A stretch of DNA of 63,845 nt, counting the filler, from Perkinsus chesapeaki ATCC PRA-425 (taxonomy: Eukaryota > Protista > Perkinsozoa): NCBI GenBank assembly GCA_013115145.1. It is 10 parts of 10 records of this genome, joined end to end, with 100 filler letters (N's around TTAATTAATTAA, not from the genome) between each part and the next. Parts side by side here need not be neighbours in the genome. Positions count along the whole stretch, not along the records: positions 1 to 11,339 come from JAAPAO010000850.1; positions 11,440 to 29,432 come from JAAPAO010000675.1; positions 29,533 to 42,337 come from JAAPAO010000804.1; positions 42,438 to 44,754 come from JAAPAO010001629.1; positions 44,855 to 46,283 come from JAAPAO010001964.1; positions 46,384 to 51,931 come from JAAPAO010001148.1; positions 52,032 to 55,968 come from JAAPAO010001342.1; positions 56,069 to 58,514 come from JAAPAO010001602.1; 2 more parts are not named here. One strand, written 5' to 3'. Numbering within the stretch: the stretch's first letter is position 1; each line of letters opens with the position of its first letter. The notes beneath the pieces are model-generated. The model saw only the letters and a list, made by a program, of their open reading frames with translations. It was not told the DNA's origin and did no database searches. Of this stretch, positions 667-60,462 are shown piece after piece. The position numbers and the translations under genes were made by a program.

Positions 667-1538
667 ACTCACTTCACACTTTGCCTCTATCCTATCACTA
701 TGCAACTTTGTAGTATCTCATAACTCTGTCTTGATCCGTTAAACATCACAATTTTTGTAGCTCTCGTTAGTTATAGCTGACCTTTGTGGTAGGTAAATGA
801 GCTTAGATTTTATATTATGAAGATGTTGGATGCAGCGTTCTATGAAGTGGTTCTACGCGTGCCATGATGTTGCTGTATGCCGAATCCAACTTGTTTTCTT
901 GCATTTTGTATCAACTGAGCACTTTGTACATAGAGTAGTTGGTTAGATAGACTAACTCTTTTCACCTTTCTATCCCTTCATTTTCATCCCCATTATCACT
1001 TAAGAAGATAGTCTTGAGTTACTATGAGATTAAACAGGAGCAACAGTGATCATGTTAGTATTCGGTGGTGTCATGCGCGACCATCACTGGTCAACTTTTT
1101 TGGTAATACGCGTATAAATACTCTCAGCTCTCTAAACACACCTGCATAGCTTCATCGTTTTATCTTAGCCAGAATCGAACAGAGTTTATGGAGGTACCAT
1201 TGGTACCGTACCACAATTTCCTGGGCACCTCCAGGGCAATTCCCATCCGATCACCGTGAGCTCGCCCAATGAAAAGGAAACAAGGAATCTAGAAAATAAG
1301 AGTAAAGTTTGCTCAACAAAAAGGTAGCTACTTCAAATGACGAACGCAACTCCATAGTGACTGAGGAAGGGCTTTCAGAAGTGAAGCCTCATAATCCTGA
1401 TCAGCTATACGACCTTCAGAATGATAGAAGCATACAAGAAGTTGATTGTATTGAAATATAGTTGGATTTGACTGATACGGTTCAACACATTCATGCAAGA
1501 ACGTGAAGCCAAAAAGTAGACATTACAAAAGTTTGGTA

Positions 1539-2423
1539 TTACTGATACGGTTCAATACCTTCATACAAAAACTTGACACTAACGTCCTCGGTGTAAACCT
1601 TATAGATATCACGCCAGTCTAAATGTACCCAGTGGGATGCACCCTGAACATTGTAGAAAACCAGCTGATTATTAGACTCTTTCGGGCATGGTAATCTCCA
1701 GAACCAAGTAAACCAACCGGTCCATACCTTCTCGTCCTGTGAAGAGCAGCCAAGTCTCTTAGCCCAACGATCAAAACTGTTCCATTTTTGAGGAAAGCTA
1801 CCGAAAAGGCTGACTCCGGACCATGGCACTATACCATCAACGCTACCGTGGAAGACAAGGAGAGACCTGTTAAAGGCCTGATTACCCTCTTTCATCTTCT
1901 CGTCGCACACATCGAGGCCTTTGTTACCACCAGGGCCAATGGTCAGGACACCGCTAGCGCTCACACCTCTCTGGACGACACCTTCGCACATGAGAACCTC
2001 TGTGAGCATACCACCGTTGGAGAAGCCATAACCATACACAGGAACATTCCCATGAACCTTTCGACGAGCTTCGATCGCCGATTTGATGTAGCTGATGTCG
2101 TCGTACTTTGGAAAGCAGCATCCACCAGCATTCCAGCTGCGTGATCCATCTATACCTATCGCTTGGGGCAGGATAATCTCATAACCGTACTTGTTGGCAT
2201 ACTTGCGGAAGTCGGTGTACCAAAGGAAAGTATCACTACTTTCGCCAAAGCCATGTAAAGTGAGCAATAGGGAAGTGATGGGGGTATTCTTCGGAGTGTA
2301 AACTCTATAGGCTCTCTCACCATCGGGGGTCTGTACACTTAGGACCTGTGTATCGATATCGGCGGATACAAACAGAACCCTGGTAGTCAGCAGAGCCAGA
2401 GGGAGGAGATCGAAGATCTTCAT
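1539..2423 (-). CDS. Secreted alpha/beta-hydrolase, LpqC / PHB-depolymerase-like esterase
   Basis: ATG at 2423, then a signal-like MKIFDLLPLALLTTRVLFVSA. Motifs LHGFG, WNAGGCC, nucleophile GFSNGG, FHGSVD (Asp) and GASH (His). Intronless. Confidence 0.8.
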   Translation of the reverse strand: MKIFDLLPLALLTTRVLFVSADIDTQVLSVQTPDGERAYRVYTPKNTPITSLLLTLHGFGESSDTFLWYTDFRKYANKYGYEIILPQAIGIDGSRSWNAGGCCFPKYDDISYIKSAIEARRKVHGNVPVYGYGFSNGGMLTEVLMCEGVVQRGVSASGVLTIGPGGNKGLDVCDEKMKEGNQAFNRSLLVFHGSVDGIVPWSGVSLFGSFPQKWNSFDRWAKRLGCSSQDEKVWTGWFTWFWRLPCPKESNNQLVFYNVQGASHWVHLDWRDIYKVYTEDVSVKFLYEGIEPYQ

Positions 2424-2881
2424 AACTAATAAAGTTTGAAAGCGAAATTCGGTCAAGTTCGGCTACGTGACATAGCTACGCCACGTACGTGCATTCTAAC
2501 TTATGTGTAGCGTCGCTGACGCCGCCACACCGCCAAAAATCTAGGAGGGCCACTATGAAGACGAACTAATTTGAAGCAGGGTGGCCTGTTTTTATATAAG
2601 ATACACGAAGTGTATCGAAGTGAAATCCGAACTAGTCCACCTCCCGGTCCACACGCATGCGCATTGTGGATGTCACGGGATGCAAGGACTCAGTGTCGGT
2701 GAATCAGCTGAGCTCTGGTCTGGCTTTTCTTGAGGGTCACACCGGAGCTGAGACGGAGCTCCTACCTTAACGGTCGAGAGCTCTGGCTCCGCTACTATCA
2801 GAAGAACTCGTGCCTTGTTCACCACGCTCACCACAAATGGCCTTCAGCGAGCCAATAGGCCACGCACACAAGCTTTCTGTG

Positions 2882-3157
2882 TCACAAAGTTGAAAATGTT
2901 GAAAATTTCAACATGCCTTCGACAGCAGTGGAATCGGTGTACATGATGAAACGCCAGTTCTCCTGAGCACAAGAGTTGGCTAATCCCATGGCTACAGCAT
3001 ACAACTCATACGCAACTATCTGATTCTCACGATGACTCTGCAAGCGTCGGTACCATGAAGGCACTTGGCCCGACGCGTACCACACGCGAAAACCGTCTGT
3101 CGCAGTTGCAACAGCAGCAACCGCACCCTCGCCTGTAGCATCAGCATACACCTCCAC
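2882..3157 (-). mobile_element. Retroelement RNase H fragment (DIRS/Ngaro-like)
   Basis: VYADATGEG...IVAYELYAV...MYTDS gives the D-E-D RNase H acidic triad. No intact RT nearby. Confidence 0.5.
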
Positions 3158-3244
3158 ATGATTCAGAGACTCTTTTCACTGGCAACCGCCGATATCATGG
3201 AGACGAGTAGCTAATGAGTCGATTAGCATTATTGTCTATTTATA

Positions 3245-5017
3245 TGTGACCTACTCCAGAAGTTTGGTGACCGTGGTTCAGTACCACTGGTACTGTACCA
3301 GTGGTACTGGTATTTGGGGTATACTATACTCCCTAAAGACCAGCCTCTTCACTGCATTGTTGATTCTAGTGATCTGGCATTGGGTGTCGTCATCTGCGAT
3401 GACAAAAATAATCCTTCAGATGAGTGCCGTCTACGAGCTATTGATGCTTCTACTAGCATTAAACATTCTCTCCACATAAATGTTGCTGAGCTGGATGCTA
3501 CTATATTTGGTCTTCAAAAATGTCAGTCTTTTGGTCATCGTCATGTGGACCTATACACAGATTCCAAAAGTGTTGCAGACTGGCTCCACATGTTATAAGA
3601 GAATCAGTGCATCCCCCACAGGGTATTCCGTTAGTATCTCGACTGAACCCCCTATCGAGCTTTCTCCTCCATTTGCTTTAGTTGCTGCCGGGCTGCAACT
3701 GGTGGGCGAGGAGGAGACGGAGTATACGGGTAGATTCTGGCCCTCGAAAGATGAATTGCTTGCTGTATATTCCTCAGTAACACGTCCCTTCATGGATAAG
3801 GGAGTTTATGGATCTGAGGGAATGCTCTACTGTATTATAAGAATCGTCTTTACTTGCCTGTCTTGTTTCGTAATGCTCTTATTCGTGGTATACACTGTTC
3901 CCATTTACATGCAGGTTCCGCTGAGGTTGAGAATGCTATAAAGCGAGGTTTGATTGGCCTGGCATGAGAGACGATGTCAGACATGTTATTTCCCAATGCT
4001 GTAATACAGTCCGTGAGAGAAATAAAGCTGTTACTCCCAAGCTTTCTGCCCCATCTCCACGACGCCTCTCTCACAAGCGTTGGTGGTGTGTGGCGGTTGA
4101 TGCCTTTAATGTTGAGGGTGTTCCAATCCTCTCTATCATTGATGAGTTTAGCAGATTTGCTCTGGTCCGCTTGCTGGCGGTTGAGAAGGCCGATGACGCT
4201 TATGAAGGTTTGGTCGGTTGCTTCGAATGTCCTCTACTTGGTTATCCAGCCTATGTTAGGTCTGATAGAGAGATATTTGTCAGCCTCCGTGAGCGCCTAC
4301 TTACTGGTGGCGTCGTTCTTATACTTACTTCTGGTTACAGGCCTACTGCTAATGCTGTGGTCGAGAGGCTACATCCAGGATGTAACATCCTACTATACGC
4401 TTGAGGCTATCGGTACTACAGCCTTCTGAGTCACTTTCTGTGAGACTCTCTCAACTTATTCGAGCATATAATAGTTCACCTCATTCAGCTCTAGAAGGAT
4501 CTTCTCCGGCAGAAGTGTTTCTAGGCATATGCCTAAGGGAGAAGTTTCATCTTCCAGTCCTAGTCCCTGATCCTGACGTTCCACCGGTCCGGTGCCACTC
4601 ACTGGCAGCCACTGGCACCGGACTCGCCGGCATTCGAGAAGGGCGACTTTGTCTGGCTGTTGAGACAGGTAGCTGAAGTTCAGCTGCTGAACGTCGTTCT
4701 GATACTAGATTTTATCCTCACCCTTACAAGGTTGTAGGATGTTCTCCATATGCTTATAAGCTATTAACAGTCGATGATGTTGGTACTACCAACTTGGTAG
4801 ATTGGTCTCTGCCACTGTAGCTAGACTGGTCCTTTGCAGAGAGCAACCTAACTCGAGTACGATAGCTGTTCCTAGGATTGTGTCTACTTCTGCTCCACCT
4901 CGTCACGTTCATGTTGATATAACTTCTTCTTCAGATGAGTCTGTTAGTAATCATGTTGTGATTCCTGTTGCTCAACCCTTACCGCGTAGGAATCGTCATC
5001 CTCCAGTTAGGTTTTAG
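3245..5017 (+). mobile_element. Decayed LTR retrotransposon pol (RNase H - integrase; Ty3/gypsy-like domain order)
   Basis: RNase H: CIVDSS, INVAELDA, LYTDSKS. Integrase Zn region: HLHAG...SQCC. DDE core: VAVDAF, RSDRE, ANAVVERLH. Tail RRNRHPPVRF. Broken by stops and frameshifts. Confidence 0.8.
3280..3309. other. hAT-type excision scar (extended by a fourth unit)
   Basis: AGTACCA+CTGGTACT+GTACCAG (word AGTACCAG), then TGGTAC again. 3279-3309 is a perfect 31-bp palindrome with a 1-nt centre. Confidence 0.75.
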
Positions 5018-5048
5018 CCTAGTGGAAACCCGCGCCAAGTTTCATTTG

Positions 5049-5358
5049 ATAGCGCCGCGCTATTAGCGCGGGTTATAGTATCTAGACTAGATAATCTAGT
5101 CTCCCTCATTTATTATTAGTATGTTCGGGCCGAACAGTTCGGCCATTTCAGGAGTCCCGAACAGGGGGGCGAGATATGCTAAGAACCGGGAAGGTATTCT
5201 TAGTATTGTATGTAGCTATGCGCTGTGCGGCATAGCTATGCAGCCTACACAGTTGCACGCATACACACTAAGGCTCTTCCTTACGCCTCTCCGTCAGCTT
5301 TGTGTTGGAGTGTATCTCTGACACGCAACACATCCACTCGTACGGTACGAGTCGTATC
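5049..5358. other. Cluster of hAT-type excision scars
   Basis: Exact scars at 5049-5070 (word ATAGCGCG) and 5079-5100 (TATCTAGT). One-mismatch scar at 5337-5358 (CTCGTACC). Confidence 0.75.
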
Positions 5359-5799
5359 CCCAAAATCGCAGCCTCGCCACTCGGACACAGTCTTTTTCGA
5401 CTTTTATCTCGCAGCCAACTATGCCACTGAGTCGAGCAAACGACTCAAACGAGCTCCACGCGAGATCAGATCTATATGCTGTATGGAAATCATCTAAATA
5501 ATTTTGACAAAATTATTTAGATGATTTCCATACAAAATTATTTTGTACAGGACACTCTAGTAATGTCCGCGATATATGACACAAAAGCATGCTCAAACAA
5601 AGATATGCAGTCACAGACGAGACAGCCCTGTATGGGAAGACGGCATTATAAAAGGTGTTATAGAGCAGCTAGTACCTGATATATGAAGTAGTTGTAGTTG
5701 CTTTGTTACTGCATTACTTGCTTAGCTAAATGTAGATGGCATAGGTTTTTGTGATTTCATTATATGCTGTCATAATATTGTTAATCTGCGAAGCTTTCA

Positions 5800-8640
5800 A
5801 ACCGAAACGCCGAGTATTCGCGGCGAAGCTACTGTTTTACTGATTTGCATAACAAATTGGAACACCCTGTAGATCAGTTCGATCTACCGCGAATTGGTTA
5901 ACTCTACAAACTTCCCAACAACCCACTTAGCGCAGCTTGCAATTGTAGATAATCAATCTCGTGCCATGGTAACGGAACCATTGAAGCCAATGTACTTTTA
6001 GGATTCCGCGAGGCCTCATCACTCACTTTGTTGCAAACTCATCTTATGTCTACTGAGTTTACTCTATACTTAGTACTGGCAACTATCGTGACCATCAATT
6101 GCATCACCTCAGATGATTCACCTGTGATGTTGATGTGGACTTTTGCAATACTTAGCCGCCGGTGAATTATCTAACATGCACGTTATATATGCATTTTGAC
6201 AACTCATATCTTCTCCTTTCAGTATCATACACAATACTGCAGATAACAATTCTAAAGTACACATGTTGCCCGACCTTAGCTCAAGTGTTTGTTTCCCCAA
6301 CTTTTCCACCACTATATTCCATAGAGTCTATGGCATAGACCATTTTCGTTTTCACAACGAACATTTAAACATTTAGCTTTCCACGGAAAACCTTTCACGT
6401 AATAACACCCACCAAAACCAGAAAGGCTGGCACCAGTCACTGAAAGAATCTCCTTTGGATACTGGACCAATTTCCTTGAGGACACTGGTTGTTGAATCCG
6501 CTGTATAGTTGTAGGACACTGTCCTACAACTCGACTGTGAGCAGTATATTATTGCAGGTCCGATGAGCAGTGCCAACGAACTGCGCGAATGACTCCCCTC
6601 GCATTTCCGAATACTTTTTTAACACAAGTCAATGATTGTTACCCATCGGCTACTCAAACATCATCATAATCATGCCTTGGTACAGGTAAGATAATTTACC
6701 CAAGGCAACTTGAGGGTATTATTAGCTCTAACAGCATAACAACCATTACCGTATTCAGTATTAGTTGTAGACCAACGACTCATGTAACTGACCAACAAGG
6801 ACAATGGTGACTTGGTGACAATTGCGGCGATATCTCAGAAACGTAGAGACTAAGGACATATCTTTGCGTCTGCGTGCAGTTTTAGGCATGCACATCATGG
6901 ATTGATGATCATATTAAGTCTTCCAGTTGTGTTACAAATGTCCGATCTTGGAACTAGGTCTAAGGGATGCGTAGTGATTGGTCAGGCTCCCTCATCATTG
7001 AATTAATATACAAACCGTTTGTTTCATAAAAAGTTGTTGTTGTATTGGGAATTTCTCGCGCAACGTTCTTTGGGCTCTGGCCGCCCGAACTACCAGCGGT
7101 AAGTCGCCCACTCACCTCGGGATACCCTCCATCTGCTCCTTCCATCGATGTTCAGTCGTACGATAATACGAATTAGATCGACGGAAATGTCGGGCGAGTT
7201 CAGTCGTTGCCTGAATATGGGTAAACCCTACACTCTATCATGCACTTGTCCATACATCAGAGAGGCCTCGAAAGATTTTATGGGAACTGGCCACAAGCAC
7301 AAGTATGAATCCATAGTCAAAGACTCAGGCGGATATATGAGGAAGCATTTAATAATTACATATTCATTTCAATTTCATTTATTCACGTTCATGTGAAATT
7401 GACACTACTTCATAGCAGTACTAACAGAGTAAATGATCGAAAGTCTCCATATAATACTGGAAAGCGCTATTGCAACGATAATAGAAGTGGCAACGTTCAA
7501 GTCTGTCTCGTGAGGAGAACGCTAACCTTGTTATCATCTAAGTTACCCTTGGGGTCATCCTCCTCCCCAGCCGTGTATCCTCTCTAACGTGGATACTTCT
7601 ATCCTCCATTTTGGCACCCCTCCGCACCCGACGACCCTCAGCAACGGAACCAACTAAAGTTGATTGATGCTGGTGGGGCCGAAGTGATGCTAATACCTGA
7701 TCGAACGTAGTGAGTGAGGAAGACCGAGCCTTCAGGTGGCATGCCGTAATTTCGTGGCGCGTGACTTTATATTAAACTCTTACATTTATTCCAAAGCATG
7801 GTTCCGTCAAAGCAGAATTGTGTTCTGGTAATCTTTCGAACCTGATCGATCCTTCATTCACCTCATGAAGACTATCAATACTTTAGCGAATCCACCGGCT
7901 TGAAGCCACGTCCAGCAAGCACACCTCCAACCAGATGCGGAGCACTACTATAGTGCTTATGTGACCGAAAGGGCTCGATGTTAGGGTTGCTCGTGTGGTG
8001 CCTGTTTTAGGTGTTTGAAAATTACAAAGTCATCGAATGCCTTGAATACCCTCTTTCGCATCCTATTGATCGATATACGGCTGTTGTAGTCGGTGTTCGA
8101 TAACAGTCCATGTAGCAAGACTTGTAGAGTGAATTTCAGTTCTACTCACCCTGAATTATTAGCAACAACAAATATGAAGAATGGCATTGGAAAATATAGG
8201 CGATGACAGCACTCAATAAGATTCAACATATTATAGCGAGATCGTAGTAAACGGCAGGAATGAACATGCATCGAGGCGTGAAAAGTGTATCGAGATTTGC
8301 AAGCTGACCAACTGGACCGGATTCCTCGGGCGAGGAAGATAGAATCCTATTTTGTATCACCAAACGGGCGAGCTTGTTCTTCTTCTTTCACACGTGCGGC
8401 GCGGAGTAGCAATAGGAGGTGAGATAATATTATAAATGGGCTGGAGAGGTCGGAACGATGGTCTCTGCATCCTTCCTTCCACAATGACTTGAAACTTTCA
8501 AGTCAAAACTACTATACATAAGTATGCCTGAGCCTATGGTAGTCAATGTCATCCGATATAGTTTGTTAAGCAGTTGGCAGCGGTTGCTGCTACTGCTGCT
8601 GGTGCAACGGGAAGATCTTCCTTAATATTTATCCCTCCGC
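5800..8640 (-). CDS. Possible multi-exon hypothetical gene (boundaries unresolved)
   Basis: Short open segments bounded by GT/AG, e.g. GLLSNTDYNSRISINRMRKRVFKAFDDF, VNEGSIRFERLPEHNSALTEPCFGIN and PRNYGMPPEGSVFLTHYVRS. No family recognised; no complete model could be built. Confidence 0.25.
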
Positions 8641-11439: not shown

Positions 11440-11954
11440 TATAATTAATTCTACTGATGCTATTACATTTTCTAATATTGGATATATACTTTCCGGTATT
11501 ATATTATTATTACCATCATCATATACAACCATATCATTATTATTAACCACCATAATACTACCATTGTCATTAACCTCTTCATCATTATCACCACTATAAT
11601 TAGGTTCAATTCTTCTCGTTGTTAATGTAGTAATATTATTCTCACTTGTTGTTGTTCTGTTATTTAAATCTACAAATTACATTACAATAATTAGTAATAT
11701 TATTATTACATTGATTATTATTTATCATTGATGGTGGCGGTGGTAGTAAGGCTCCTCCCCTTAATGCTGCTGCTGCTTCTGATGATGATGATGATGATAT
11801 AATACTATTATATCGTGCTGTTCCTATTATAATTAATTATACCAATATTTATATTATTATTACTACCTTCACCAGCTCCTTCTACGCCCTGAATATGTAA
11901 TAAATCAAGTAATATATTATTATTATTGTATGATGATAATGGCGTATTAATCAT
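11440..11954 (-). CDS. TBP: Second TBP copy, 5' part only (cut by contig edge), with a different intron-containing N-terminus
   Basis: 11440-11596 is near-identical to ~12904-13060. Model: ATG 11954, introns 11866-11824 (43 nt) and 11709-11670 (40 nt), both phase-consistent, reading into ...PESIYPILENVIASVELII. Confidence 0.65.
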
Positions 11955-12384
11955 TATTATAATAATAGCAACTGCTATTAACAAATTATTGATAAAAACA
12001 CAATATTATTATGAATACTATTATTATTATAATCATCATCGTTTATATGATGATGATGATGATAGTACGTATTAGTAATGTGATGATATATATTATTACA
12101 GTATACTATTAATAACAACGCTGCAATACTAATAATATCTATAACATTATTAAGCAGCAGTAGTAGTATTATTCAATAATACATAGTCAATGAGCGGGGA
12201 CGCCAATCGCCAATTGTATCATACAACATTAATAATAATAACAACAGCAGCCATCTTATTATCTTCATTATGAAGAAAACAACAATATGAGCAATAACTA
12301 TTTCATTCACCACCATTCTGCATGGTAATAATAATAAGACCATTCGTGTCCCAGTTGCTATTGTCGTATATTATGTAGTAATTA

Positions 12385-13200
12385 TTAGTTTTGATATTTT
12401 AATAATAATGGATATATATTACGGAAAGCATCACTAATATCTTGTCTATTTTTAGCACCAGTAAATACTATTTTACCAGATACAAATATTAATAATGCAA
12501 CTTTAGGTTCAAATAATCTAAATACTAAACCTGGATATAATTCAGGTTCATAACTACAATACGATCTATGTTCATAAGCTAGACCTTCTAATCGTATTGG
12601 AAATCTAACATCTGCTGATGCTACCATGTTTTCAATCTTAAATTTACAGAATTTAGTATTTGGATAACCACTTTTTATAACTATTTTAGCTACTTTTTTA
12701 GCCGCACTTTTAGCTGCATCTTCACTATTACTACCAGTTACCATAACTTTACCAGTACCATATAACATTGCAGTTGCTTTAGGTTCTCTAAATCTTATAA
12801 CAACAGCATTTACTTTACGTGGATTATATTCAGCATTACGTGCTTTAAATGCCACCTTTTTTAAATCAATAATACTATTACTACCACTTCCATCATCCAT
12901 ATTTATAATTAATTCTACTGATGCTATTACATTTTCTAATATTGGATATATACTTTCCGGTATTATATTATTATTATCATCATCATATACAACCATATCA
13001 TTATTATTAACCACCATAATACTACCATTGCCATTAACCTTTTCAACATTATCACCACTATTATCATCTTTCCGTTTATTAACTAATGCTTCTTCTTCTT
13101 CTTCCTCTTCTTCTTGTTGTTGCTGTGTAGTGTATTGTGTTGTAGTTGTTGGTATACAATCCTTATTCAACAAGGAATCTATATCAAAATCATTTAGCAT
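12385..13200 (-). CDS. TBP: TATA-binding protein (divergent)
   Basis: Two TBP repeats: LENVIASV, ARNAEYNP, TGKVMVTG, IENMVASADV.FPIRLEGL, SYEPELYPGL, LLIFVSGK. Probable ATG at 13200. Confidence 0.95.
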   Translation of the reverse strand: MLNDFDIDSLLNKDCIPTTTTQYTTQQQQEEEEEEEEALVNKRKDDNSGDNVEKVNGNGSIMVVNNNDMVVYDDDNNNIIPESIYPILENVIASVELIINMDDGSGSNSIIDLKKVAFKARNAEYNPRKVNAVVIRFREPKATAMLYGTGKVMVTGSNSEDAAKSAAKKVAKIVIKSGYPNTKFCKFKIENMVASADVRFPIRLEGLAYEHRSYCSYEPELYPGLVFRLFEPKVALLIFVSGKIVFTGAKNRQDISDAFRNIYPLLLKYQN

Positions 13201-13736
13201 TATAATAATAATAACTAATAATAAATAATAATATAACAACCCAAAACATGATATATCCCTAGTATATTATCATTATATGCAAACCTTTCTAGTATAATAA
13301 TAAGTAATCTAACATCTACTCATGCTATTAGATTCTCTATCTTAAAATTAATATTAAATTTAATATTATTATTATGTCTAACTTTTTGACTTATAAATTT
13401 ATAAACCTTTTTAGTCATATCTATTGTATATGTACCATTAATAATAAGTTAACCGTTACGATATAAATGTCGTTTTTGGATTACTATTATTATATATCAC
13501 CATTATTAATATCAGGCGATAATGGATGAGTAATACTTGATGTATTCGGTGTTAAAATATCATCCCAAATATTGTCAGACATAATGGAGATATACAAACA
13601 CCAATCCCAACAACAACAACCACTACCCGTCTCCGCCGCCGCCGCCGTATGATGATATCGATTATAATGGCGAGCGCCAATTAGGCTAAAGGGGGGGGTG
13701 GGGGTTGGTTAGCTGGTTGTTATTACTATTGTTATT

Positions 13737-16500
13737 ATGTCTGGAGTTATTGGTATAGATTTGGGTACTGCTGATGCTATTGTTGCATCTGTTGGTAGAG
13801 GTGTTGTTGATATAGTACGTAATGAAGTATCTGAAAGGAAGACACCATGTGTTGTTGGTTTTACATCTAAAAACAGATTAATAGGTAATAATAATAGGTT
13901 GTTATTATGACTATTATGAATAGGTGAATCTGCTATGACATCAATTAAATCTAATTATAAGAATACATGTCGTAATCCTAAACAACTATTGGGTAGATCA
14001 ATTGATGATCCTGAATTAGAAAAAGAGAAATTCTTTCAAATATGTGATAATGCAATTGCTAATGATGGTACTGCTGGTTATAAAGTATCCTATCTTGGTC
14101 AAAATAGAGTATTATCAGCAACTGTAGTTACATCAATGTTATTATCTAAACTTAAAGAGACTGCAGATATATTCACATCATCTAATAGTAAGGATGTTGT
14201 TATTGCGGTGCCATCATATTTTAAAGATTGTCATAGACAAGCAGTATTAGATGCATCACGTATAGCTGGTCTTAATTGTCTAAGAGTAATGAATGATTCA
14301 ACAGCAACAGCATTAGCTTATGGTATATATCGTAGTAATGAATTTAATGATACTAAACCAACTATAGTAGCATTTACATCTGTTGGTGCATCACATTTTG
14401 GTACTTGTATTGTTAAATTTACTAAGAGTCACCTAACTATTATTGGTGAAGCTATTGATACTACTGTTGGTGGTAGATATATTGATAAAGCATTAATGGA
14501 ATATTATGCTAATGAATTTAGTAAGAAGACTGGTGGCTTAAATCCATTAGATAATGCTAAATCAAGATTTAAGTTGGAAGAAGCTGTTAATAAAGTTAAA
14601 AAGATATTATCTGCTAATAATGAAGCAGTATTGGGTATTGAATGTTTATTAGAAGATGAGGACTTAAATGCTATAGTAACACGTGATAAATTAGAAGAAC
14701 TATGTAAACCTATGATTGATAAAATGGTTAATGTTATGAATAAAGCATTAAGTGAAGCAAATGTAAGTAAAGATGAATTAGACTCAGTTGAAATAGTTGG
14801 TGGTGTATCTAGAGTACCATTTATCCAGCATACTATTATTAATACATTTGGTATTAATGATCTATCAAGAACATTAAACGCTGATGAATGTGTTGCTAGA
14901 GGTTGTGCATTGCAGGCTGCTATGTTATCACCGTTATTTAAAGTTCGAGATTTTGCCGTAACTGACTTTATACAAGATGGTATACAAGTTGAATGGAAAG
15001 CAGCAGCATCATCAGCATCAGTAGTTACTGATAATAATAATGATAATACTACTAGTGAAGAAATGGGTGGTGGTGATGATGTTAAAAAGACTGAGGTATT
15101 TCAACCAAGGTCAACACTTAATATGGTTAAAATGTTAACTTTCTACCGTAAAGATCCATTTGAATTATCAGCACACTATTCAACAACATCATCATCGTCA
15201 TCATCATTGGGTAAATATATAATAGAAGTACCTCATAGTGATGTATCTAAAAAGATTAAAGTTAGAGCTAAACTAAGTTTACATGGTATATTTAGCATTG
15301 AGAATGCAGTATTATTAGAGGAAGAAGAATATACTGTTATAGAAAAGGAAAGAAGACCTAAACAACATAAGAAAGAAGAGAATGAGGAGGAGGATGTTAA
15401 TATGCCAGATGCTTCACCTAAGATAGATGATAATAATAATCAAGATGTTAATATGAAGCAAGATGAAGGAACAGCAGAGAAGCAGCAGCAGCAGCAGGAG
15501 CAGGAGGAGGAAGTAATGGCGGAGAGGGTGATAATATTAATAATTTATAATTAGGATAATAATAAAAAGAGAGATGATGAATATGAGGAAGTAGAAGTAA
15601 CGAAGACCAAGACAAGAACTAAGAAGACTGATATACCTATTAAACGTAATAATAATTATTACTTCAAGCAACAGCAACAACAACAACATTGTTATTGTTG
15701 TTACAAATGACAGGTTATGGTGTACCTGGGATGACAGATGAACAACTTGATATTGCTGAAAATGATGAGACTAAAATGAAAAGTATAGATAAAGAAGTAT
15801 CTGAAACTGATGAGAAAAGGAATGAATTGGAAAGTTATGTATTTGAAAGCAGGTAATAATAATAATAGTTTATATGTGTTATATAGTTGTTGTTATTATT
15901 AGGGATAAGATAAGCTCACCGTCATCTAAATGGTATGATTATTTAAGTGAATCTCAAAGAGATGAATTATCTAATATACTTATGAAAACTGAGGATTGGA
16001 TATATGATAATTATGATGCTAGTAAAGCTGAATATATGGATAAATTAATTGATATACGTAAATTGGGTGATGAAGCTGATAGAAGATTGATAGAGGCATC
16101 ATTAAGACCGGAAGCTGAAGCAACAGCTCAAGATACAATACAAAAATATAGATCATTAATCCAATCACCTGATAAGAGTTATATATCTAATGATAGTAAA
16201 GAATATATTATTAATGAATGTAATAAGCTGGAATCATGGTTATCCCAACATAAAGCATTACAAGCCCGTCAAGCATTATATATTAATCCAGTTTATACTG
16301 TTAATGAGCTTAATTCTAAAACACAATCGCTTATTAAAGTGGCTGATGGTATATTATCTCAACCTCCCCCAACTACTTCAACAACTCCAACTCCTACTAC
16401 TAATAACAATGGCTCATGTAATCCAACAATAGATGAGGTTGATGATTCTAGTAGTGCATCAGATGATAAGGATAATAATAATGATATGGATGTTGATTAA
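13737..16500 (+). CDS. HSP110: Hsp110/SSE-type Hsp70-family chaperone (multi-exon)
   Basis: MSGVIGIDLG, RNEVSERKTP, EIVGGVSRVP, TLNADECVARGCALQAAMLSP..KVRDF, acidic loop and C-terminal MDVD. Introns include 13885-13923 and 15513-15554. Confidence 0.92.
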
Positions 16501-25679: not shown

Positions 25680-25693
25680 AATAATAATAACTA

Positions 25694-30293: not shown

Positions 30294-30686
30294 GTATCTG
30301 GCTCCTCTAGTGGCAGTGACGACAACTGTTCGTGACCGCTGGCGCATGCGTTCGATTGCCGATCATTCTGATTAGGTTGCGATGCAGCTGATCAATATAT
30401 AGTCGGAGGAAAACTATTGAGAGCTACATTGGACTGGCTTGATCTTCGTCGCCCACTCTCCTGTCACTCTCTTCAATTTTCGCTGGTTAGAGCAAGTTGT
30501 TCTGACCTATGACTCATAGGAACTCAATCTGTCATCAAATTCGTGTCACCATGCACTGGTGTCACTCGGTCCTTCTCAGTGGTAATTCAGCACAGTTTGA
30601 ACAGAAAATACAGTTACTAGGATAATGTCCTAAGGATATGCTTATAGTGACTGGGTGAGAAATCGGAGAATGATTCAGTTGGGCTG

Positions 30687-32271
30687 AACTAAAGTTTAGT
30701 TATTGAATCGATAGCTCAACCGTTGCTCCACGTCGGACTCCGACAGTCGGAGCAACATACCCGTACCGTAACGGTTTTACCATTGACTCCACTCAGGGGA
30801 GTCCACCGGCACCTTCCCGATGCAAAACACGGCGCGAGTCTACAACGGCACAGCCTGTGTCACACTGGCGCATCGCGTCGTGAAGACTATCATTGCTTAA
30901 CATCGTGCGGATCACTTGAACGTCTGGCTGCCACATTACTGTCAGTAATTTACTGACCAGCTTGAGCCTGGCAGCCTGCCAGACTCGGACACTGTCCGAC
31001 GGACAGCCAGAACTTCAATCTAACTTCCTAGATGGGTCCCATCTTGACCATCAAATACGCGTTTGGAGCCCATATGCTTGCTCGTGCGACAATGTCTGTT
31101 TATTAGGTCTACAAACCGCATGAACCTCCGTGATCCTGTAATGCAGGGTTTGGACGTAATTTACCACGGAATCCGTTGTACAGATGAACGCTTCATCCGT
31201 AACACGTAAGTCGGGAGTGAGGTGCCGTCACTCGCCCTCACTGAGGGCGATAGCGGGCCACGTCATTTATGGCCACGATCCAATCATGGTGACGCGGATC
31301 CACAGGCTGTGGTGAGAGTCACCGTGTCCGTCGCTTGAGGTCCTCGAAACGGTAGTCTACCGAGCGGCACCTACATTATGTAGGCTACATACGTTCAGTG
31401 CCTCCAAACTGGTACAGCTTGCAGTACAAGCCTTGTACTCAGCAAGCTAATGCCGCGAGGCATAATTCATGTTAGTGGCATATCGTGCTAGTTGCAGCTC
31501 GCACAGTGAAAGGTCGCATATTTATTACGTTTGCGGAGCTGCTGGAGCACCACTTGTTGTGCATAGAGTAAGTAAGCGAAGTGCAGGGAGAGTCTGTGCT
31601 GCCTGCTCAGTTGTGCATTGTGTATTTTGCGTGAACGTGCCCCGGGGCGAGCGAGGTTCCTGATGGGAATCCTTTCCCATGGAAAGTCCTTCAGGTCGCC
31701 TTCAGAAGGTGTCCCTTTGCAATAACTGAGGTGCTTGTGGTGTTCACTACGGGTTTACACACTGAGGTTCATCTCAGTTCGGAGAGTCCGAGGAAATCTG
31801 GCTTCTATTTTTTCTTCATCGGTAGGAGCCTGGTTTGTGACTCATAGTTGGCTGGGTCAACTTGGCTCTCTACGTAGACTGTAGTGAGCTCGAGTCGATA
31901 ACTAGGCTCGGCTTCGGTGTTGTCACTGGCAGCCCATGGGGAGATACTCCCAAACTTCAGAGGCTGTCAGGCAGGACATGCCGCCATACGGCTGTCAACA
32001 CCTTCGCCCTCTTCCCACACTCCCTAAAAGATAGCGACTTATGCTTTGCTTTGTACAGTACTATTGGGCACAGCTTTCTTGTGGTACGCTCGTACAGTGT
32101 CATCTTGTATAGACTGTACGGTACGTTGGCAGGTGAAGTAGACTACTTCAAGTGGTACAGTATCCTTTCGTACAGCTGTTACTGCCAGTAACTTACTGGT
32201 TCTGCGCCATCTCCGGGTGCCGCGACCATAGAAGCCATTTAGTGACATTTACACGTAACGTGTAGCACGTT
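30687..32271. other. Hotspot of hAT-type scars and 1-nt-centred palindromes
   Basis: Exact scars at 30985-31006, 31370-31391 and 32178-32199. One-mismatch scars at 30731-30752 and 32250-32271. Partial palindromes at 30687, 30968, 31232, 31300, 31350 and 31423. Confidence 0.8.
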
Positions 32272-37965: not shown

Positions 37966-40407
37966 CTATGAAGATTTTGCACAGCTTACAGATATCTGAT
38001 CGATTATTGTATGAGCCGTTGAGGCTGTTTTCAATATAGTGTAGCTGCTCCATTTGAAGCCTTTGTTATCGTCCAACTCGAGCTCGATGACAGTAGCCCC
38101 CGGTGTGTCTGCCAGCGCTGAGAGAGATCATTTATGTCAGCTAACGGACATCTCGTTGAATACAACCATTACAACTTTACACCGTATGGCGGCTCACCTC
38201 CGTCGTATCCACCATATCCGCTTTTGCGACCATAACCGACACGGACGCTATGGGAGCCCATGTCGACTTGGGCTACGAAATCGTTGTTGTGATCATGGCC
38301 ATGAAAAATGCCAGTGACGCTGTGTTCAGCAGCGGCAGCGAATAGACCTACACAGAGACAATAGTTAACCATTGCTTGCGGATCCTCCTGGTCACAGTAT
38401 TGGCTATGGAAGCCAAGACCCATGAAGAGATTCGGTGAGCTATCGTTGCACATAGGAAAGTGTACGTCACATACGAGACGGGTATGTACCGTAAGCTGAG
38501 CTTACTATATGATACTAAGCAGCAGAGGAGTATACGGATGTATTATAAGACCTATATAGACCCGTCCTATTGAATAGGGTCCATTGTAATTATACTGTAT
38601 ACTTCCCCCGTCGAGGGCATTTCCAAACGACTGATGGTTAGGTAACACTATGGTACGTGATGCATATGCTTTGCAGAGCAAGGTGGTGATTGTAGGTGTG
38701 AACGCCATTCGGTAGATTAGCCTAGTCCCAGCATTTGACTGGAAATTGCCAAACATGAGGAACTCACCGGTATTAACGCTGCTGCAGGAGACATCTTCAG
38801 TCTTAATTCCAATCACTTTACTGGCATCCCGACCAAAAGCATTCCAGTATAGCAGAACCTGATAAGATGGCTGCCTCGTTACGCAGTACTGGCAGATCTC
38901 ACCTCCTGAAGTGGTATGTGTACAAACATCAACCCTTGGACGTCACGAAGGCCATCTCCTTTCGACATATTTTTGAACCTGGTGATATCAGACATAAGCT
39001 CCTCGAGACGCGCGGAGCCTATTGACGTGGGAAATTCGACAAAAAGCTGAGATTTCTGGAGGAAAAATGAGTCATTTTCGCTCACTATGAACCGGGTTCA
39101 TTGAACCCATTTACTGGGAGCCGTTTCAGGGATTTCCGAGAGGCCATTATATCCCTTTTGGATCCGAAATTCAGTCTACCTCTGGCCCGGCCTCAAAATT
39201 CCCGCACAGAAAATTCGGGAAACGTCGCGCCTTCTGAGAAGCCTCACCAATCTATCTGGTCTTCTTCAGCACATCCCCATCCCTTCAAGCCCATACAATT
39301 CTCAACACCCGAGTCCAGCATCCACAGCAAGGCTTGCGGGGCGGCGCCGTCCACAACGGAGGAGTTGCGATATATCGGCACATAGTAAACGGAGCCGCCA
39401 GTGCTCCCCGACGGGGCTGAGAGAGACCATCGACGATCGTGGGGAGTGCGGCTACGGAAACGCGCCGTTTCGATAGTGCAATACTACTGAATGCATACAA
39501 TGTAGGAACATTACGTATGCAGTTGAGCGAATTCTTACATTTCATATAGTCCGGAGATCTAGGTCGAGGTATGTATTTGATATCCGACTGCGTACGTTAG
39601 CAAGAAGGCAAACGGAGGAATACGATTGGATTCGATACGATAGATTCTCCCGTCCCTCAACATGTGTTACACTGGAAGCTAACCTAGTGTGTGCACTCTA
39701 CAGCTGTGCCATGCTCGCAGACTGCGAACCACTATTGTTGGATCCTTACGCTCCCTGGACAGGCTCATCTCCGTAGCATGTGTGTCATAGGAGATGATGT
39801 CCTTACCATCAGGCCTGATACCGTCAGGCAGAGGGTCGTGGTTGCCCATAACGTAAGCGTAGGGTATCTGATAAAGATGGGAGCCATCCGTCAGAGCTGA
39901 CCAGCCAGCGTACCTCCAGCTCCCTCACACTGGAAGTGAAACGCTCCCACTGTGCGCGGAACCATTCTGTGCAGTCGCCTTGTTGCTTGCAGTCATCCGG
40001 TGCTGCGTAGTTCGATATGGCGTCACCATTGAAGACGACCTAACCAGGACCACCAGGGCCAGTTCTTCTACCTACCGAGCGCTCACCATGTCGGGCTCTT
40101 CTGCTTCCAAAATTTCCTTCTGGAACGTCTGAGCAAAAACAGTCCTGAATGGTCCCACAGTCGCTGATTTTACATCCGATTTGCCATCTTTATTTTCCCC
40201 TTCTCCATAGTGCAAGTCGCTGAAGACTAGAATCCTGAACTTCCCGGTATTTTTGTTGAAATGCACTCGAGGCCTGCCTTCCGGCCGCCGCAGAAGGGCC
40301 AGCAAGTGGAGCGTCGAGCTCACTCGCATTGCATCAATTGTCGACTGCAACAACAACAACAACAACAACAATAACGACGACGACTTTCCGGCACTACTTC
40401 TGCGCAT
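37966..40407 (-). CDS. Calcineurin-like metallophosphoesterase, Dcr2/PAP29-like (multi-exon)
   Basis: Signal peptide, RILVFSDLHYGE, YVMGNHD, LWMLDSG, MFVHIPL, FHGHDHNND and GYGRKSGYGGY. 3' end approximate. Confidence 0.85.
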
Positions 40408-44854: not shown

Positions 44855-46283
44855 ACTGGCTGAGCCTGCCCTGTATAGATGCCTGTTGTATCTTCGCAAC
44901 ACTTATGCCGATCACATCAAGGGATTTCAGCTCGCTCTCGCTCAAGTCTCTTTCGATGAGGCTGGCATACACGTTCCAGTCAATCATAGTCTCGGCCACT
45001 GAGGCCTCTACAGGCGTGGAAAGATAGACCAGGTGGAGATCACCCTTGAGGCACAGACCGGTGTCCTGGCAAAGGCGCTTGAGCTCTTGCCAAAGAGAGA
45101 GGCCCGCTTCACAGCTCAAACCACTGGCACAAACAGCTCGACCCAGCGGCGTGGCCACATAGACTTGTAAGTCTCGGTTGAAATGCACCATGGCAGTTGA
45201 CAATAGGTATTTCATTCCAGCATGAACTGCTGGGAAGTCTTCTGCGACACTGGCTCGTCTCTTCTTCTTGTCACCGGGTTCATAGAGCTGGCGGTCGAGA
45301 AAAGTAGACCTCGCTAAACGCATGATCTGATCGTCCCTCATCTGACCGGCCGTGGCCATGACCTCCAATAGAAGCCGTTGAAGACCAACGCAGTTCTGGC
45401 CTAGGGCGCTCTTTAGGGGCGGCAAGGCATCCATGGCCATAGAGATGACACGCTTCCTTTCGGCCTCGCTCGAGCAAATGACGTAGCTTTCACCAGAGGC
45501 GTTGGACTGACCTGAGCGCCCAGCTCGACCGGCCATCTGCCGGTACCTTGTAGTATCCAGAAACTCCGTGGCGATGAATGGAGTTCGGAATACCACACGT
45601 TGAGCCGGAAGGTTGACGCCGGCAGCCAGGGTGCTGGTACATGTGAGACACGTTATGGCGCCGCTCCTATAGCCTCTCTCAACTATGTCCCGCTCTTCGG
45701 TAGTCAGTCCACTATGATGGAACGCTACTCCAACAAGAATACCATCAGCTAGGTTCCGGTCGAGGCCGGCGCCAGTGTTACAACTGCAGAGTTCCAGCTC
45801 GGAACGGAGCTGAAGACGGTGGTGCCTGACCTCTTCAGTGGGCGCAGGTGCCGAGTGCCATGGCAGTGATTTTGTGAGGAGGTTGCAGGCCACTTCGCAC
45901 TTCAGCTTAGATGGGCAAAACACGAGAACGGAGTTCCCGAGGGACACAGCCTCCCAGACGGCCATCATGAACGCATCAGTATCGGTGCCTGGCATGAGGT
46001 GGTCGGTGTCTTCAAGTTTCCGTATAGCCCTGCTCTCCCGATCGCAAGTGTAAACAGTGCGCTTGCACACCACGAACTCATGCAATGGGACTGGGCGGAA
46101 ATCTGTGATGTAGAGGTTGGCGTCCAGCCAAGCGGCCACCTCGGACACATTGGGGAGGGTAGCCGACATGCCCACTATTTGGCAGCTCGGCGCGAAGTAC
46201 CGGATCTTTGCGACAAGGACTTCGAGAAGATACCCTCGCTGGGAGTCGCCAAGGAGGTGAAGTTCGTCGAGGACCAGACAGCC
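44855..46283 (-). CDS. POLQ: Ski2-like helicase, POLQ/HELQ N-terminal helicase domain (internal fragment)
   Basis: LVLDELHLLG..RG.LLE, GMSATLPN, VLVFCPSK, GVAFHHSGL, CTSTLAAGVNLPA, QMAGRAGR, TPLGRA and DLHLVYL.TP. Open across the whole contig. POLQ and HELQ cannot be told apart without the C-terminus. Confidence 0.85.
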
Positions 46284-50822: not shown

Positions 50823-51931
<1,109 letters not shown>

Positions 51932-52834
51932 NNNNNNNNNNNNNNNNNNNNNNNNNNNNNNNNNNNNNNNNNNNNTTAATTAATTAANNNNNNNNNNNNN
52001 NNNNNNNNNNNNNNNNNNNNNNNNNNNNNNNCAGAACAGCACAGAAAGTTAAATAACATCGGTCACTGTTCTTCTTAAGAGGGAATCTCGACTCTCGGCA
52101 CACTGGAGATATATACCTCCTATAGCGAGTCGCTATTAGCGACTCCCGAGAATGGTCCAACTGAACCGGAGTTAGTACGCTAGTATTGTTGGGATATGTC
52201 CGAATATAAAGGAGACGTCTCTGAGATAGAATTTCCGCCCCTGGAAGGGACAACAAAGGCATGGAAATCAGCCTCTGTTATTAGCATCGCACCCATCAGG
52301 TTACATCCTCACAACCATCATCGAATAGAGTCGTAATAAAGCGGTGTTAACTATACCGGATGCTCGCCAACGATCTCATTAAATAACGGAAGCTAACGTG
52401 GATCGGATTGAGGTTCGCGATTGAGGTTTAAAAATCTACACGTAATGCACTCAGTTTAGCACCTTTTCGCATAGTGGTGTGTGAAACGTGTAATTCACTA
52501 GCGGTTCGCCCAGCGGTGGTACAACCTTGGCATACCAGTGGCCGCCAAGTCTACCACATGATGGAGCCCGAATAAAGAATTAGCTTATCATGTAGTCTAA
52601 GGCTAATAATATTTTTACTCAATAGAAAAAATTGCCCTGGACTCCAGGCTGGAGTATATAGCCTTGCTCGTGTCTGATTATGAATCACTGAAATCCGAAC
52701 TCAACAATTCTGATAGGGAAATATAAATCCGCTCATGGCAGTCGGGCTGAGACCACTGCCACTCAATAATAGCTTCAGTCGAAGAATGCCTTCAATCGGG
52801 AAATAATAGTAACAAATACACCTCTAAATGATAC

Positions 52835-55285: not shown

Positions 55286-55614
55286 ACGTCCGCCGGACGT
55301 CGTCCGGTATGAATAACCACTAGTGGAATGAGCCTATGAGACGCCATTAATACTCTATGTTATCCCCTCTCTCGACCTGTACTGAGACACTGCATCGTAG
55401 AGAGCCCGGCAATCCGCAAGGTAGAGCATTGCTACTAAAATCTGGGTGGATTCACTTGCGCTACGATCCAGTCAGCAGCGTGCCTCAACTCTGCAGCTAG
55501 TAGCTACCAGCCGATCGTCGACGAATTTCCGCAATCTGCCAGTCTTAACAACTTGTAACCTGAATTATGCCGCACAATTTGTGCGGCGCCCGCTCGTTCG
55601 GAACGAGTCGTTCC
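55286..55614. other. Two exact hAT-type excision scars
   Basis: 55286-55307 (word ACGTCCGG) and 55593-55614 (CTCGTTCC), plus a 19-bp odd-centred palindrome at 55569-55587. Confidence 0.78.
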
Positions 55615-56207: not shown

Positions 56208-56276
56208 AATTAAAAGAAACATACATTTTTTCTGAAATTCTCAACATTGGCGGTTCCTCTATACTTGACTACTTAC

Positions 56277-57166: not shown

Positions 57167-58701
57167 GGGAAGCAGCTGTGGGGAAAACACTGCGTAAGAG
57201 TAAAATGCGGGAATGCATCAGCCATAGAGTTTATATATATTGGTAGATGTAGGAGGAATAAACCTGAGCAACTCGCGTGGAGCCGCGCTACGAAGGTTAA
57301 GAATCATCGGGGTGGGAAAATGAACAAAGCGTCCACAGAGCCGGTGGGTCTTGACAACTACGACCTATCTACAGCTCAGTAAGCTAGCGATCGTTTAGAA
57401 GAGGGAATCGCAGAGACCTACACAAGTGCGTCGATCTTGAAACCACATCGAGCGGCGGGGGTCTGAGGAAATTTCTGCACGCGCGCGCTTCTGTCTCCAT
57501 CAGTGCGCACGCGTGCATTGCGCGTTGCTTGAGCGGGTTTATAGCGTCGAAAAAATGGCGAGGTCGTATGGCACTAACGTGAGGTTCTTAAGGGAGGCAG
57601 CTCATCACCTTGTAAGACACTATGCCAACCCCAAGCACCAACCGTCGGGATCTTACTGGGAGGATCTTTAGTTCCCCATCTAAGTGGGCTAACTAGGGGA
57701 TACTGGTAACACATATGGGTCCTTCCTTGCCAACCGTCAGTATACGGACGTAGGCTAGCTCGGATCCAACACCGGACAGGCTTCGTATTAGATTGCCTAC
57801 CTTAAGGAGCCTGAATTAGAACTGCCCAGTAACGTTCGGGCTTAAAAGTGAATGGCTGTTAGTAGCAGTGTGATGCGGTTTAACAATGATTCAAGTCCAG
57901 GCCATGTCGTGGTGTGAAAGTATGGCACATTACGAGCCATGTCTCCCCACTAACAGCTTTCTACTCTGTCGCCTTCCAATGCTGCACTATGGCTTTGCTG
58001 AGTATTTCTTTGCGAACCATCACCACAAGTTTCCTTCCCTAACTGAGAGGAGCCCGTGTCGCGGAGTAATAAGCTCGCCTTTTACACATCCCTACCAAAA
58101 ACGACTTTTACGCTTTTATAAACGATTTGGAAAATACCACTGACTAAAGTTAAACATCACTGGGTAACAGATATGATACATCCACGGGTGAGATATCTTG
58201 ACACTAGTTACATTCCTATTCGGTGATACCTACAGCGGCGATAGTAGTACAGGTGTTAGGCCCTCTCGGTTTATTTCGCAAATAGGATGAGTAGTCCAAC
58301 TAAACCATATTCGACGTTAAACTATAAACTCACACAAACGGGTGGGACATTAGTCTTGTCAAGTTGCGTTGTGTTCCGCGTGTCCCTGTAGCTTTGGCTA
58401 CTAGCAGAGGTTTAATGTCCGGTATGAACAATATACACATAATAAGATCACTAGTTTGTTAACCTATGACTTGTTTTTAGATTGCATATTTTGATTTATC
58501 TATGTTTGGATTAANNNNNNNNNNNNNNNNNNNNNNNNNNNNNNNNNNNNNNNNNNNNTTAATTAATTAANNNNNNNNNNNNNNNNNNNNNNNNNNNNNN
58601 NNNNNNNNNNNNNNAGTTCGAGGAGTACGAAATCAAACTGAACCAAATCTTAGTGTACGACACTCATATGAACGGAATTTTTGTGTAGTACTTGGGCCAA
58701 G

Positions 58702-58762
58702 TAGAGGATGCTGGTGTATCTAATGTTAGATTATCTAACATTAGATACACCAGTATCCTCTA
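58702..58762. repeat. 61-bp near-perfect palindrome with a 1-nt centre
   Basis: 30-bp arms 58702-58731 / 58733-58762, with one mismatch (G58710/T58754). Confidence 0.95.
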
Positions 58763-59082
58763 GGTACTTTTGAAAAGGAGACAATATGGACGATAACGAA
58801 GAACGCCTACAATTTACAACACGAAAGTGTAAAACTGGAACAAACCCAGTAAGCTAAATAATTAAGTTGAAGTAATAAGGCTTTTACCTCAGGTACAACT
58901 AACGACCAAACCAATACCCAAGCACGAAGAAGCAACTAAAGTACAACGAAAAGGCATTAAACAAGAACTGGGATTCACAAATGGACGACCCTGCTCAACG
59001 ACTAGGAAACAGAGCAAGGAAACAGTAGGATATATAGACTAACGTGTTGTTGGTTGTTACAGTGGTGTTGCTTTAGGCACCT

Positions 59083-60462
59083 ATGAAACCTGAAAACCAA
59101 TGTCGGCACTTGCTGAGATATCCAAAAAGATACAACTTATTTCCGTCTGGCGTACCCATATTTAACTGGGCGTCCAGGCCATGTGTAAAAACGGTGAAAG
59201 ACGACAGTCCGACAAATATGCCTAAACTTCGCCTCGACGATGACAGCTACTTATTCTTCTCCCAACTGGAGGCTTTACCTGAGAGTACCGATCTCACAAA
59301 GTGTCATCACTGTGACGCGCCCAACCTTGAGCCTATGCCTGCCATAAATTTAATCAGGGCTTTACACGGTATCTACATGATCAAGGAGCTCACGGTCTTA
59401 CGGTTACTCACGTTATTTAGCGGGTATACTTTGGAAACCTTGGAAGTATGCCGATGGTTAAATGGTTTACGTACCTTCTATGATGAAGACTACACGGTGA
59501 AATTTGGTGGACTACTCTGTAATGCATGGTGTGACCATTGGTCCTCGACCTTCACAAATTCAATAAATATATCTGCTGCCGCAGCAGTGCTGCGCTGGTC
59601 AAATACCTACATTTTACCCGAGAACAAGCCACCCTCTATGTCGAAAAGTATGGAACTCCAGCAATCACATGAAGATGGTATTGTCTTGCGGGACGCAGAC
59701 GTACCACTTAACGAGAGAAGCATAGCGTATCAGACCAGCACTACTAATCTCCTGGAGTACTCTGTATACTCAAAAACCACCGATTGCTGGAGTAAACTAC
59801 CCAAATATGACGGTTGCCTAGCACGGAATGGGGAGCACTGTGGATTCCACAGTGTGGAATACTAAGTTGCTATGATGTGCAGTCCGGGTACGATCTATTG
59901 AAGTTATCCGAAGACTTTGTTGGTTTGGAACTATCGGATATACTACTACCTCACCGGTCTCGCAATATGATGCTACCTGAAGGTACCTTACCAGACTATA
60001 TCTACAACACCAAAAAAAACCCAAGACTGGTTAAATCTGATAGATACCCAGGTTCAGACGGGATCCAAAACCATCCGATGTTTCGTATGTGGTGAGAAGT
60101 GTATTCCTAGCAGCGTTACCAAAGTTTTCGACCTTTGGACCCGACAATACAACCTCGACGTCAATACGGTAGTACGGGTACTTTTGATTAACCGTGGCTA
60201 TACGTTGGATGCAACACGGGCTTTGATACTACTCAGTGATCGTTATGGTCAAGACCGAAGACGGCTTGCTCATGTGGTCCGTCTCCTGTGTTGGGTGAAA
60301 AGTTATCGAGATCTACTTGGATTACTTGATTGGATACACTGTATGACAGACTTGTACAGGATCAATTTTGTCGCAGCTGCAATACTGTTGGAATCCTGTC
60401 AATGTAGAACAAACGTTGCGAAAAAGAAACTCAATTCTTTCTTCGTACCACTTAGTACATAG
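59083..60462 (+). pseudogene. Frameshifted intronless ORF (~455 aa when repaired) with a duplicated CxxC-helical domain
   Basis: Three consecutive ORFs join after removing the 14-bp scar gain at 59838-59859 and one A from the A8 run at 60012-60019. Confidence 0.6.

Follow-up and report, generated by a model that had tools for sequence, protein, structure and literature searches.

P elements make 8-bp duplications but form no hairpins; the nick made by Hermes falls one base into the flank. During hAT transposition the hairpin is formed on the flank (PMC6900584), and the target preference of Hermes is nTnnnnAn (PMC10368747). In the footprints of Ac/Ds, the palindromes have the complement of the element-adjacent base at their centre, and joining is mostly through microhomology (PMC5873905). 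Here we analyzed a stretch of 63,845 nucleotides, filler included, from Perkinsus chesapeaki ATCC PRA-425 (GCA_013115145.1). This stretch, called the window below, consists of ten contigs joined by N-spacers and is not one locus. It contains many copies of a stereotyped 22-bp scar built on an 8-bp word. We think that these scars are probably the excision footprints of a transposon that duplicates 8 bp and forms hairpins on the flank, most likely a hAT element, and that they were healed by annealing of the opened hairpins. That flank-hairpin transposase chemistry in some form lies behind the scars seems to us very likely indeed.

The scar is formed from an 8-bp word, ABCDEFGH, as its first seven bases, then the reverse complement of the whole word, and then its last seven bases. 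Scanning the whole window gave 20 exact copies, 31 with at most one mismatch and 41 with at most two. As a control we used 300 local block shuffles of the window, in which the corresponding means were 0, 0.07 and 1.1 (maxima 0, 1 and 6). We also made a stricter count, in which three-copy parsimony was applied, overlaps were removed, and the AT-rich contig and the tandem arrays were masked, leaving 42,786 bases. Non-overlapping scars with 0, 1, 2 and 3 substitutions then numbered 20, 13, 6 and 15, against 0, 0.02, 0.25 and 3.8 expected. The graded substitution counts are an age gradient. The density of clear scars is about 0.8 per kb of unmasked bases, and the scarred words are unrelated to each other.

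The initial annotation of the window had listed nine exact copies (3280, 5049, 5079, 30985, 31370, 32178, 55286, 55593 and 59838) and four with one mismatch (1193, 5337, 30731 and 32250). We found all of them at these positions, but the list was an undercount, lacking 11 further exact copies (131, 4370, 4671, 4779, 5122, 6319, 30935, 39087, 52122, 59573 and 63454). In order to examine the geometry, we varied the word length from 5 to 12 and the trim from 0 to 3 bases on each side. Among lengths 7-12, word length 8 with trim 1/1 gave 20 and was the sole cell exceeding 8. Word length 9 with trim 3/1 gave 8, and we take these to be the scars already counted, lengthened by one chance base. Over the full range of lengths and trims, length 8 with trim 1/1 was where the signal lay. 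The window held no 9- or 10-bp-word scar with at most two substitutions, and the off-length candidates were one exact 7-bp-word scar and one nested 11-bp-word candidate. The grid and the shuffles thus bear out the peak at word length 8 that the initial annotation implied.

Each scar consists of two overlapping palindromes, one with the complement of the last base of the word (H) at its centre and the other with that of the first (A), and both centres were present in 20/20 exact scars. This is the signature described for Ac/Ds, and the proposal that the flanks had been hairpinned holds as to geometry. The joint at 5480-5546 contains one 8-bp word, of which the left hairpin was read for 28 nt and the right for 9 nt, and the two are joined over a 4-bp microhomology. 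Outside the scars, one-base-centred palindromes with arms of at least 7 bases numbered 17 against 3.5 expected, and palindromes with other spacer lengths were near chance (0-6 against 1.6-2.6 expected). The long-armed joint and the excess of one-base-centred palindromes fit hairpins on the flank.

The pol region of a decayed long terminal repeat (LTR) retrotransposon (3227-5050, plus strand), which is host DNA and not the cause of the scars, served as a ruler for their length. A word-indexed search with its integrase piece gave no match, but a HMMER search did find relatives in Perkinsus chesapeaki (52% identical), P. olseni (43% and 38%) and P. marinus. When the region is aligned without gaps to the integrase of P. 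chesapeaki, the offset changes from 3874 to 3888 across the scar at 4370, which is exactly +14. In addition, each length from 0 to 30 bases was cut out at a scar and the product was scored against the integrase relatives. At 4370, a removal of 14 was best in 5/6 relatives, two of these five being one cluster and the sixth being unaligned there; at 4671, it was best in 3/4. Judged from these alignments, the scars at 4370 and 4671 are 14-base insertions into a plain 8-base word, and the exact gain over the relatives indicates that the plain word was the ancestral state. The offset shift and the removal test thus agree, at these two sites, with the +14 bp relative to the empty site that had been claimed.

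For the dominance of this product we counted joints in which both 6-base cores are retained and which two hairpins explain completely. A middle length of 8 was found 20 times against 0 expected. Middle lengths 1, 2 and 3 were at chance (5, 4 and 1 observed; 5.0, 2.2 and 0.67 expected), and lengths 4, 5, 9 and 33 were found once each. The intact double duplication occurred once, which is the chance level (0.6 expected), and the short footprint of the Ac type (16 bp) was likewise present in the window at chance level only. The earlier claim of one dominant repair outcome can be kept for visible joints with 6-base cores. It does not reach seamless excision or deletions into the duplication, which are uncountable.

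The formation of the scar can be considered as follows. On our reading every 22-base unit arose by a gain of 14 bases in what had been a plain 8-base word. Insertion would duplicate the 8-bp word, as the fixed length of 8 suggests. The transposase would cut one strand of each flank, one base in, and the end so released would attack the opposite strand, producing a left hairpin (ABCDEFG-h'g'..a') and a right hairpin (h'..b'-ABC..H); the two palindromes themselves are seen in the sequence. Host nucleases may open these hairpins far from the tip; such opening is seen at 5480-5546 (28 and 9 nt) and is presumed elsewhere. The tails would anneal over the inverted word, and fill-in and ligation would give the 22-mer, the likely agent being a joining pathway of the Pol theta type. 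Scars would persist only outside working genes and would then decay by point mutation. In the window, 44855-46283 (minus strand) holds the helicase part of a DNA polymerase theta/HELQ-type gene, which is cut by the contig ends.

The annealing step was represented by a toy model, which is a model and not data, of the 20 exact sites, with the longest microhomology winning and flaps being trimmed. When the hairpins were opened within 6 nt of the tip, the model gave solely the seamless product, through the 6-base direct repeat. The scar made up 38% of the products when the openings lay 5-8 nt from the tip and 77% when they lay 5-12 nt from it, and from 8 nt upward it was the sole product (100%). 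In the model, one product can dominate because no built-in match other than the inverted word exceeds the 6-base direct repeat in length. The repair implied would use tails some 8 nt long or longer and favour the longest match, and the genus seemingly retains Ku and ligase IV.

A Pfam scan of the window revealed eukaryotic genes in addition to the decayed retrotransposon. None of 35 scar matches lay inside ten gene-like open reading frames (ORFs), against 8.0 expected; these ORFs were hand-picked, cover 9.8 of 42.7 kb, and exclude the retrotransposon, the frame from 59083 and the frame 76-666. Contigs derived from the reads of run X1, a possible source of the assembly, span 23/23 clear scars unchanged in the two stretches examined. 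Those of run X2, from another study, span at least 19/23 unchanged among the pieces listed. The scars are thus present in the read data of two studies, a presence that the initial annotation had made a condition of its claim.

Several observations weigh against the interpretation of the scars as hAT-type excision footprints. No DNA transposase was found in 171 Pfam-scanned frames (32 + 139), the AT-rich contig being covered by long ORFs only; this result upholds the earlier statement that no hAT transposase is recognised in the window. A strict scan of the window for terminal inverted repeats (at least 12/14 terminal bases) with an 8-bp duplication found no element, and yielded only AT-rich noise and one satellite common to contig ends. 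Among the read rows listed for the two stretches, the scars showed neither a 14-base deletion nor the end of an element, and neither an empty nor a filled allele; the samples are apparently one strain. Position 2 of the word is T (position 7 is A) in 28/64 strand-symmetrised positions of 32 words (p = 0.003, uncorrected; three overlapping matches dropped), and this target preference is weak once 16 cells are corrected for. At 4779, removal lengths of 2 and 8 outscore 14, although the frame is compatible with it, and the chain at 3273 gives no clear removal length. The frame from 59083, of 260 codons, is open across the scar at 59573 and falls to 191 codons without its 14 bases, so that a plain-word ancestor at 59573 would need a compensating indel; the same frame extends to 332 codons when the scar at 59838 is removed. 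Period-6 tandem duplications numbered 19 against 9.0 expected with microsatellites removed, and several lie in ORFs. A blunt joint would look like such tandem copies, and they may represent a second visible outcome.

The uniformity of the product is a further difficulty. Footprints of Ac/Ds are heterogeneous and mostly short, as far as the reports describe them, with 28 types among 128 clones in Candida and arms of at least 3 nt in 47% in yeast (PMC5873905, PMC1978519), whereas one 22-bp product dominates in the window. A loss of classical end joining was considered as the cause and is unsupported. P. marinus is marked as positive for Ku70, Ku80 and Lig4 (1, 1, 1) and for the POLA/POLQ group in Table S1 of PMC6635534, and as far as this congener shows, a missing classical pathway therefore fails to explain the uniformity. 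Perkinsus is not mentioned in the available main text of that paper, and a paper on CRISPR in Perkinsus, in its available part, touches end joining in general terms only.

The strict length of 8, the hairpins on the flank and the weak nTnnnnAn bias make hAT, on this analysis, most likely the best-fitting superfamily. Membership of hAT is unproven, because the enzyme and the filled site are both missing from the window. The initial annotation had attributed the scars to hAT excision. Its length of 8, flank hairpin and +14 stand; the name hAT goes beyond them, since MULE transposases form the same hairpins. We therefore considered whether the same chemistry might belong to another superfamily, namely a MULE, a relative of Merlin or Dada, or an undescribed DDE transposase with an 8-bp duplication, and we regard this as unlikely. 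The MULE Muta1 hairpins the flank and duplicates 8 or 9 bp (PMC5499845), whereas 9-bp words are missing among the scars, and its excision in yeast is given there as more than 90% precise. For a MULE of this type, duplications of 8-10 bp, often mixed in length, would be expected. Merlin remnants with 8-9-bp duplications and eight Dada families have been published for P. marinus, and the literature searched contains no description of hAT in Perkinsus; the single 11-bp-word and 7-bp-word candidates also speak for another superfamily. Dada, as described, duplicates 6-7 bp at RNA genes, whereas the scar words are of 8 bp and unrelated, and no tRNA gene was called in the window. A Merlin transposase (DDE_Tnp_IS1595) was not among the Pfam-scanned window frames, and the words "hairpin" and "footprint" do not occur in the available text of the paper reporting the Merlin remnants. 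The weak bias of the words favours hAT.

The ratio of scars to elements raises the question of whether the element ever persisted. There are 33 scars and zero filled sites in 42.8 kb. The transposase might stay bound to its integration product; a polymerase would fill 7/8 gap bases, the new 3' end would immediately attack the junction, and the same hairpins and the same scar would result. The intermediate of such a hit-and-run reaction would be chemically identical to the nicked excision intermediate. However, repeated ordinary excision in a clonal lineage would likewise give far more scars than elements, and no such reaction was met in the literature examined; we think this course very improbable. 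The product can also be expressed as a two-switch inversion without any transposon, in which replication switches strand, copies 8 bases and switches back, and no enzyme gene was found among the Pfam-scanned frames. Nevertheless, the length of 8 and the one-base trim are fixed across unrelated words where template switching generally gives variable lengths, and no pre-existing inverted repeat is required at the switch points. We give this explanation hardly any credence. A library or assembly artefact, which the fragmented assembly might suggest, is refuted by the unchanged scars in contigs of two studies, the gene avoidance and the decay gradient, and its probability is negligible.

The chemistry of the footprint is already known from Ac/Ds. 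In the literature searched we found neither such scars in Perkinsus nor a natural genome dominated by one product, and experimental lists from yeast and plants may include the 22-mer. A stronger version is that one stereotyped process of +14 bases, with fixed hairpin annealing despite Ku and ligase IV, has reshaped the genomes of Perkinsus. Its driver would be either a flank-hairpin transposase not yet described or a hit-and-run reaction without a resident element. In this version some ten thousand events would have occurred, should the density of the window hold, and frameshifting scars would be a main route of retrotransposon death in this lineage; we hold this version to be doubtful. Excision is normally invisible in sequence, and a scar that identifies itself permits events to be counted, mapped and dated. 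Such scars allow an estimate of the moves behind surviving copies and of the target preference of the lost element. They also give information on how hairpins are opened and ends are joined in a parasitic alveolate whose repair is little studied; dense and uniform as they are, they would form an unusual record of hairpin-ended break repair in a shellfish parasite. Moreover, they can be used as nearly homoplasy-free markers of strains and species, and any genome can be searched for the pattern.

Scars, variant joints and the host retrotransposon in the window
Feature	Coordinates	Strand	Method
22-bp scar, exact	131..152	.	pattern scan
22-bp scar, 1 substitution	1193..1214	.	pattern scan
Four palindrome centres spaced 7 nt in a chain, including exact scar 3280-3301 and a 31-bp palindrome at 3279-3309; may be a nested or long-armed event	3273..3309	.	
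22-bp scar, exact; +14 bp vs integrase relatives	4370..4391	.	
Scar 4593-4614 (1 substitution) inside a candidate scar of an 11-bp word (2 substitutions); the frame shifts by a net 1 mod 3, compatible with 14+20	4578..4622	.	
22-bp scar, exact; +14 bp vs integrase relatives	4671..4692	.	
22-bp scar, exact; frame compatible with +14	4779..4800	.	
22-bp scar, exact	5049..5070	.	
22-bp scar, exact	5079..5100	.	
22-bp scar, exact	5122..5143	.	
22-bp scar, 1 substitution	5337..5358	.	
Long-armed variant, contains 1-substitution match at 5493	5480..5546	.	
22-bp scar, 1 substitution	6103..6124	.	
22-bp scar, exact	6319..6340	.	
22-bp scar, 1 substitution	30618..30639	.	
22-bp scar, 1 substitution	30731..30752	.	
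22-bp scar, exact	30935..30956	.	
22-bp scar, exact	30985..31006	.	
22-bp scar, exact	31370..31391	.	
22-bp scar, 1 substitution	31417..31438	.	
22-bp scar, 1 substitution	32135..32156	.	
22-bp scar, exact	32178..32199	.	
22-bp scar, 1 substitution	32250..32271	.	
22-bp scar, exact	39087..39108	.	
22-bp scar, exact	52122..52143	.	
Exact 7-bp-word scar, or 8-bp scar annealed one base off-register in a C/G run	52636..52654	.	
22-bp scar, exact	55286..55307	.	
22-bp scar, 1 substitution	55564..55585	.	
22-bp scar, exact	55593..55614	.	
One-base-centred palindrome with ~30-bp arms, adjoining a second with 7-bp arms; likely a long-armed hairpin joint, though words mismatch	58689..58762	.	
22-bp scar, exact; within open 260-codon frame of unassigned kind	59573..59594	.	
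22-bp scar, exact	59838..59859	.	
22-bp scar, 1 substitution	60910..60931	.	
22-bp scar, exact	63454..63475	.	
22-bp scar, 1 substitution	63559..63580	.	
Decayed LTR-retrotransposon pol (RNase H + integrase pieces)	3227..5050	+	Pfam, relatives

In addition to the features in the table, 40570-40612 and 30927-30982 are possible two-hairpin joints with filler between inverted copies, one of which contains a nested exact scar. A self-BLAST of the window placed no scar within a clean paralogue pair. The 260-codon frame with two scars had no relative but itself in similarity searches. The region 59077-60459 (plus strand) holds two or three unassigned open frames with Cys/His pairs, broken near the scar at 59838. 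In the reads of runs X2, X3 and X5, a second, diverged group of retrotransposon copies was observed (3700-4200, 4950-4980), which is not in X1. Read depth also indicated multi-copy short repeats at about 31550-32050, 33020-33220, 5190-5330, 5670-5875, 30-120 and 870-1030; by eye these show no inverted ends or duplications, and they are candidate non-autonomous elements.

The AT-rich contig of 18 kb (11440-29432) contained no scar with at most one substitution, and its six two-substitution matches are low-complexity and were dismissed as noise. Its GC content is 30%, against 42-56% in the other contigs. It carries housekeeping genes for TBP, an Hsp70-like protein, TAP42 and a 2-hydroxyacid dehydrogenase, together with a non-LTR-like RNase H piece, and it may be a separate genome compartment or a second organism. 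One 55-bp satellite occurs at three contig ends (42265-42337, 51833-51931 and 56069-56214), and further tandem arrays lie at 11167, 34236, 60966 and 62181. A similar pair at 42201-42228 and 51749-51776 resembles tRNA 3' halves, where ARAGORN calls no gene.

Comparing the scars with known systems, Ac/Ds in S. cerevisiae, Arabidopsis and Candida albicans shares with them, as reported, the palindromic insertions, the hairpin opening followed by microhomology joining, and, if the fixed word length is read so, the 8-bp duplication (PMC5873905, PMC1978519). Besides the heterogeneity described above, the difference is that the Perkinsus scars are natural, occur at about 0.8 per kb, and have no element in view. 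Hermes likewise forms a flank hairpin, and its 8-bp target nTnnnnAn is weakly echoed in the scar words (PMC10368747, PMC6900584), whereas no Hermes-like gene or ends were identified in the window. In Muta1 the flank hairpins are opened by host enzymes (PMC5499845), but its duplications are of 8 or 9 bp and its excision is mostly precise, whereas the scars are strictly of length 8 and +14. Finally, the P nucleotides of V(D)J joining are also inverted copies, which arise when a flank hairpin is opened away from its centre (PMC6900584, PMC5499845). In contrast to the scars, V(D)J joining proceeds without target duplication and hence without a built-in 8-bp match, and its joints are diverse by design.

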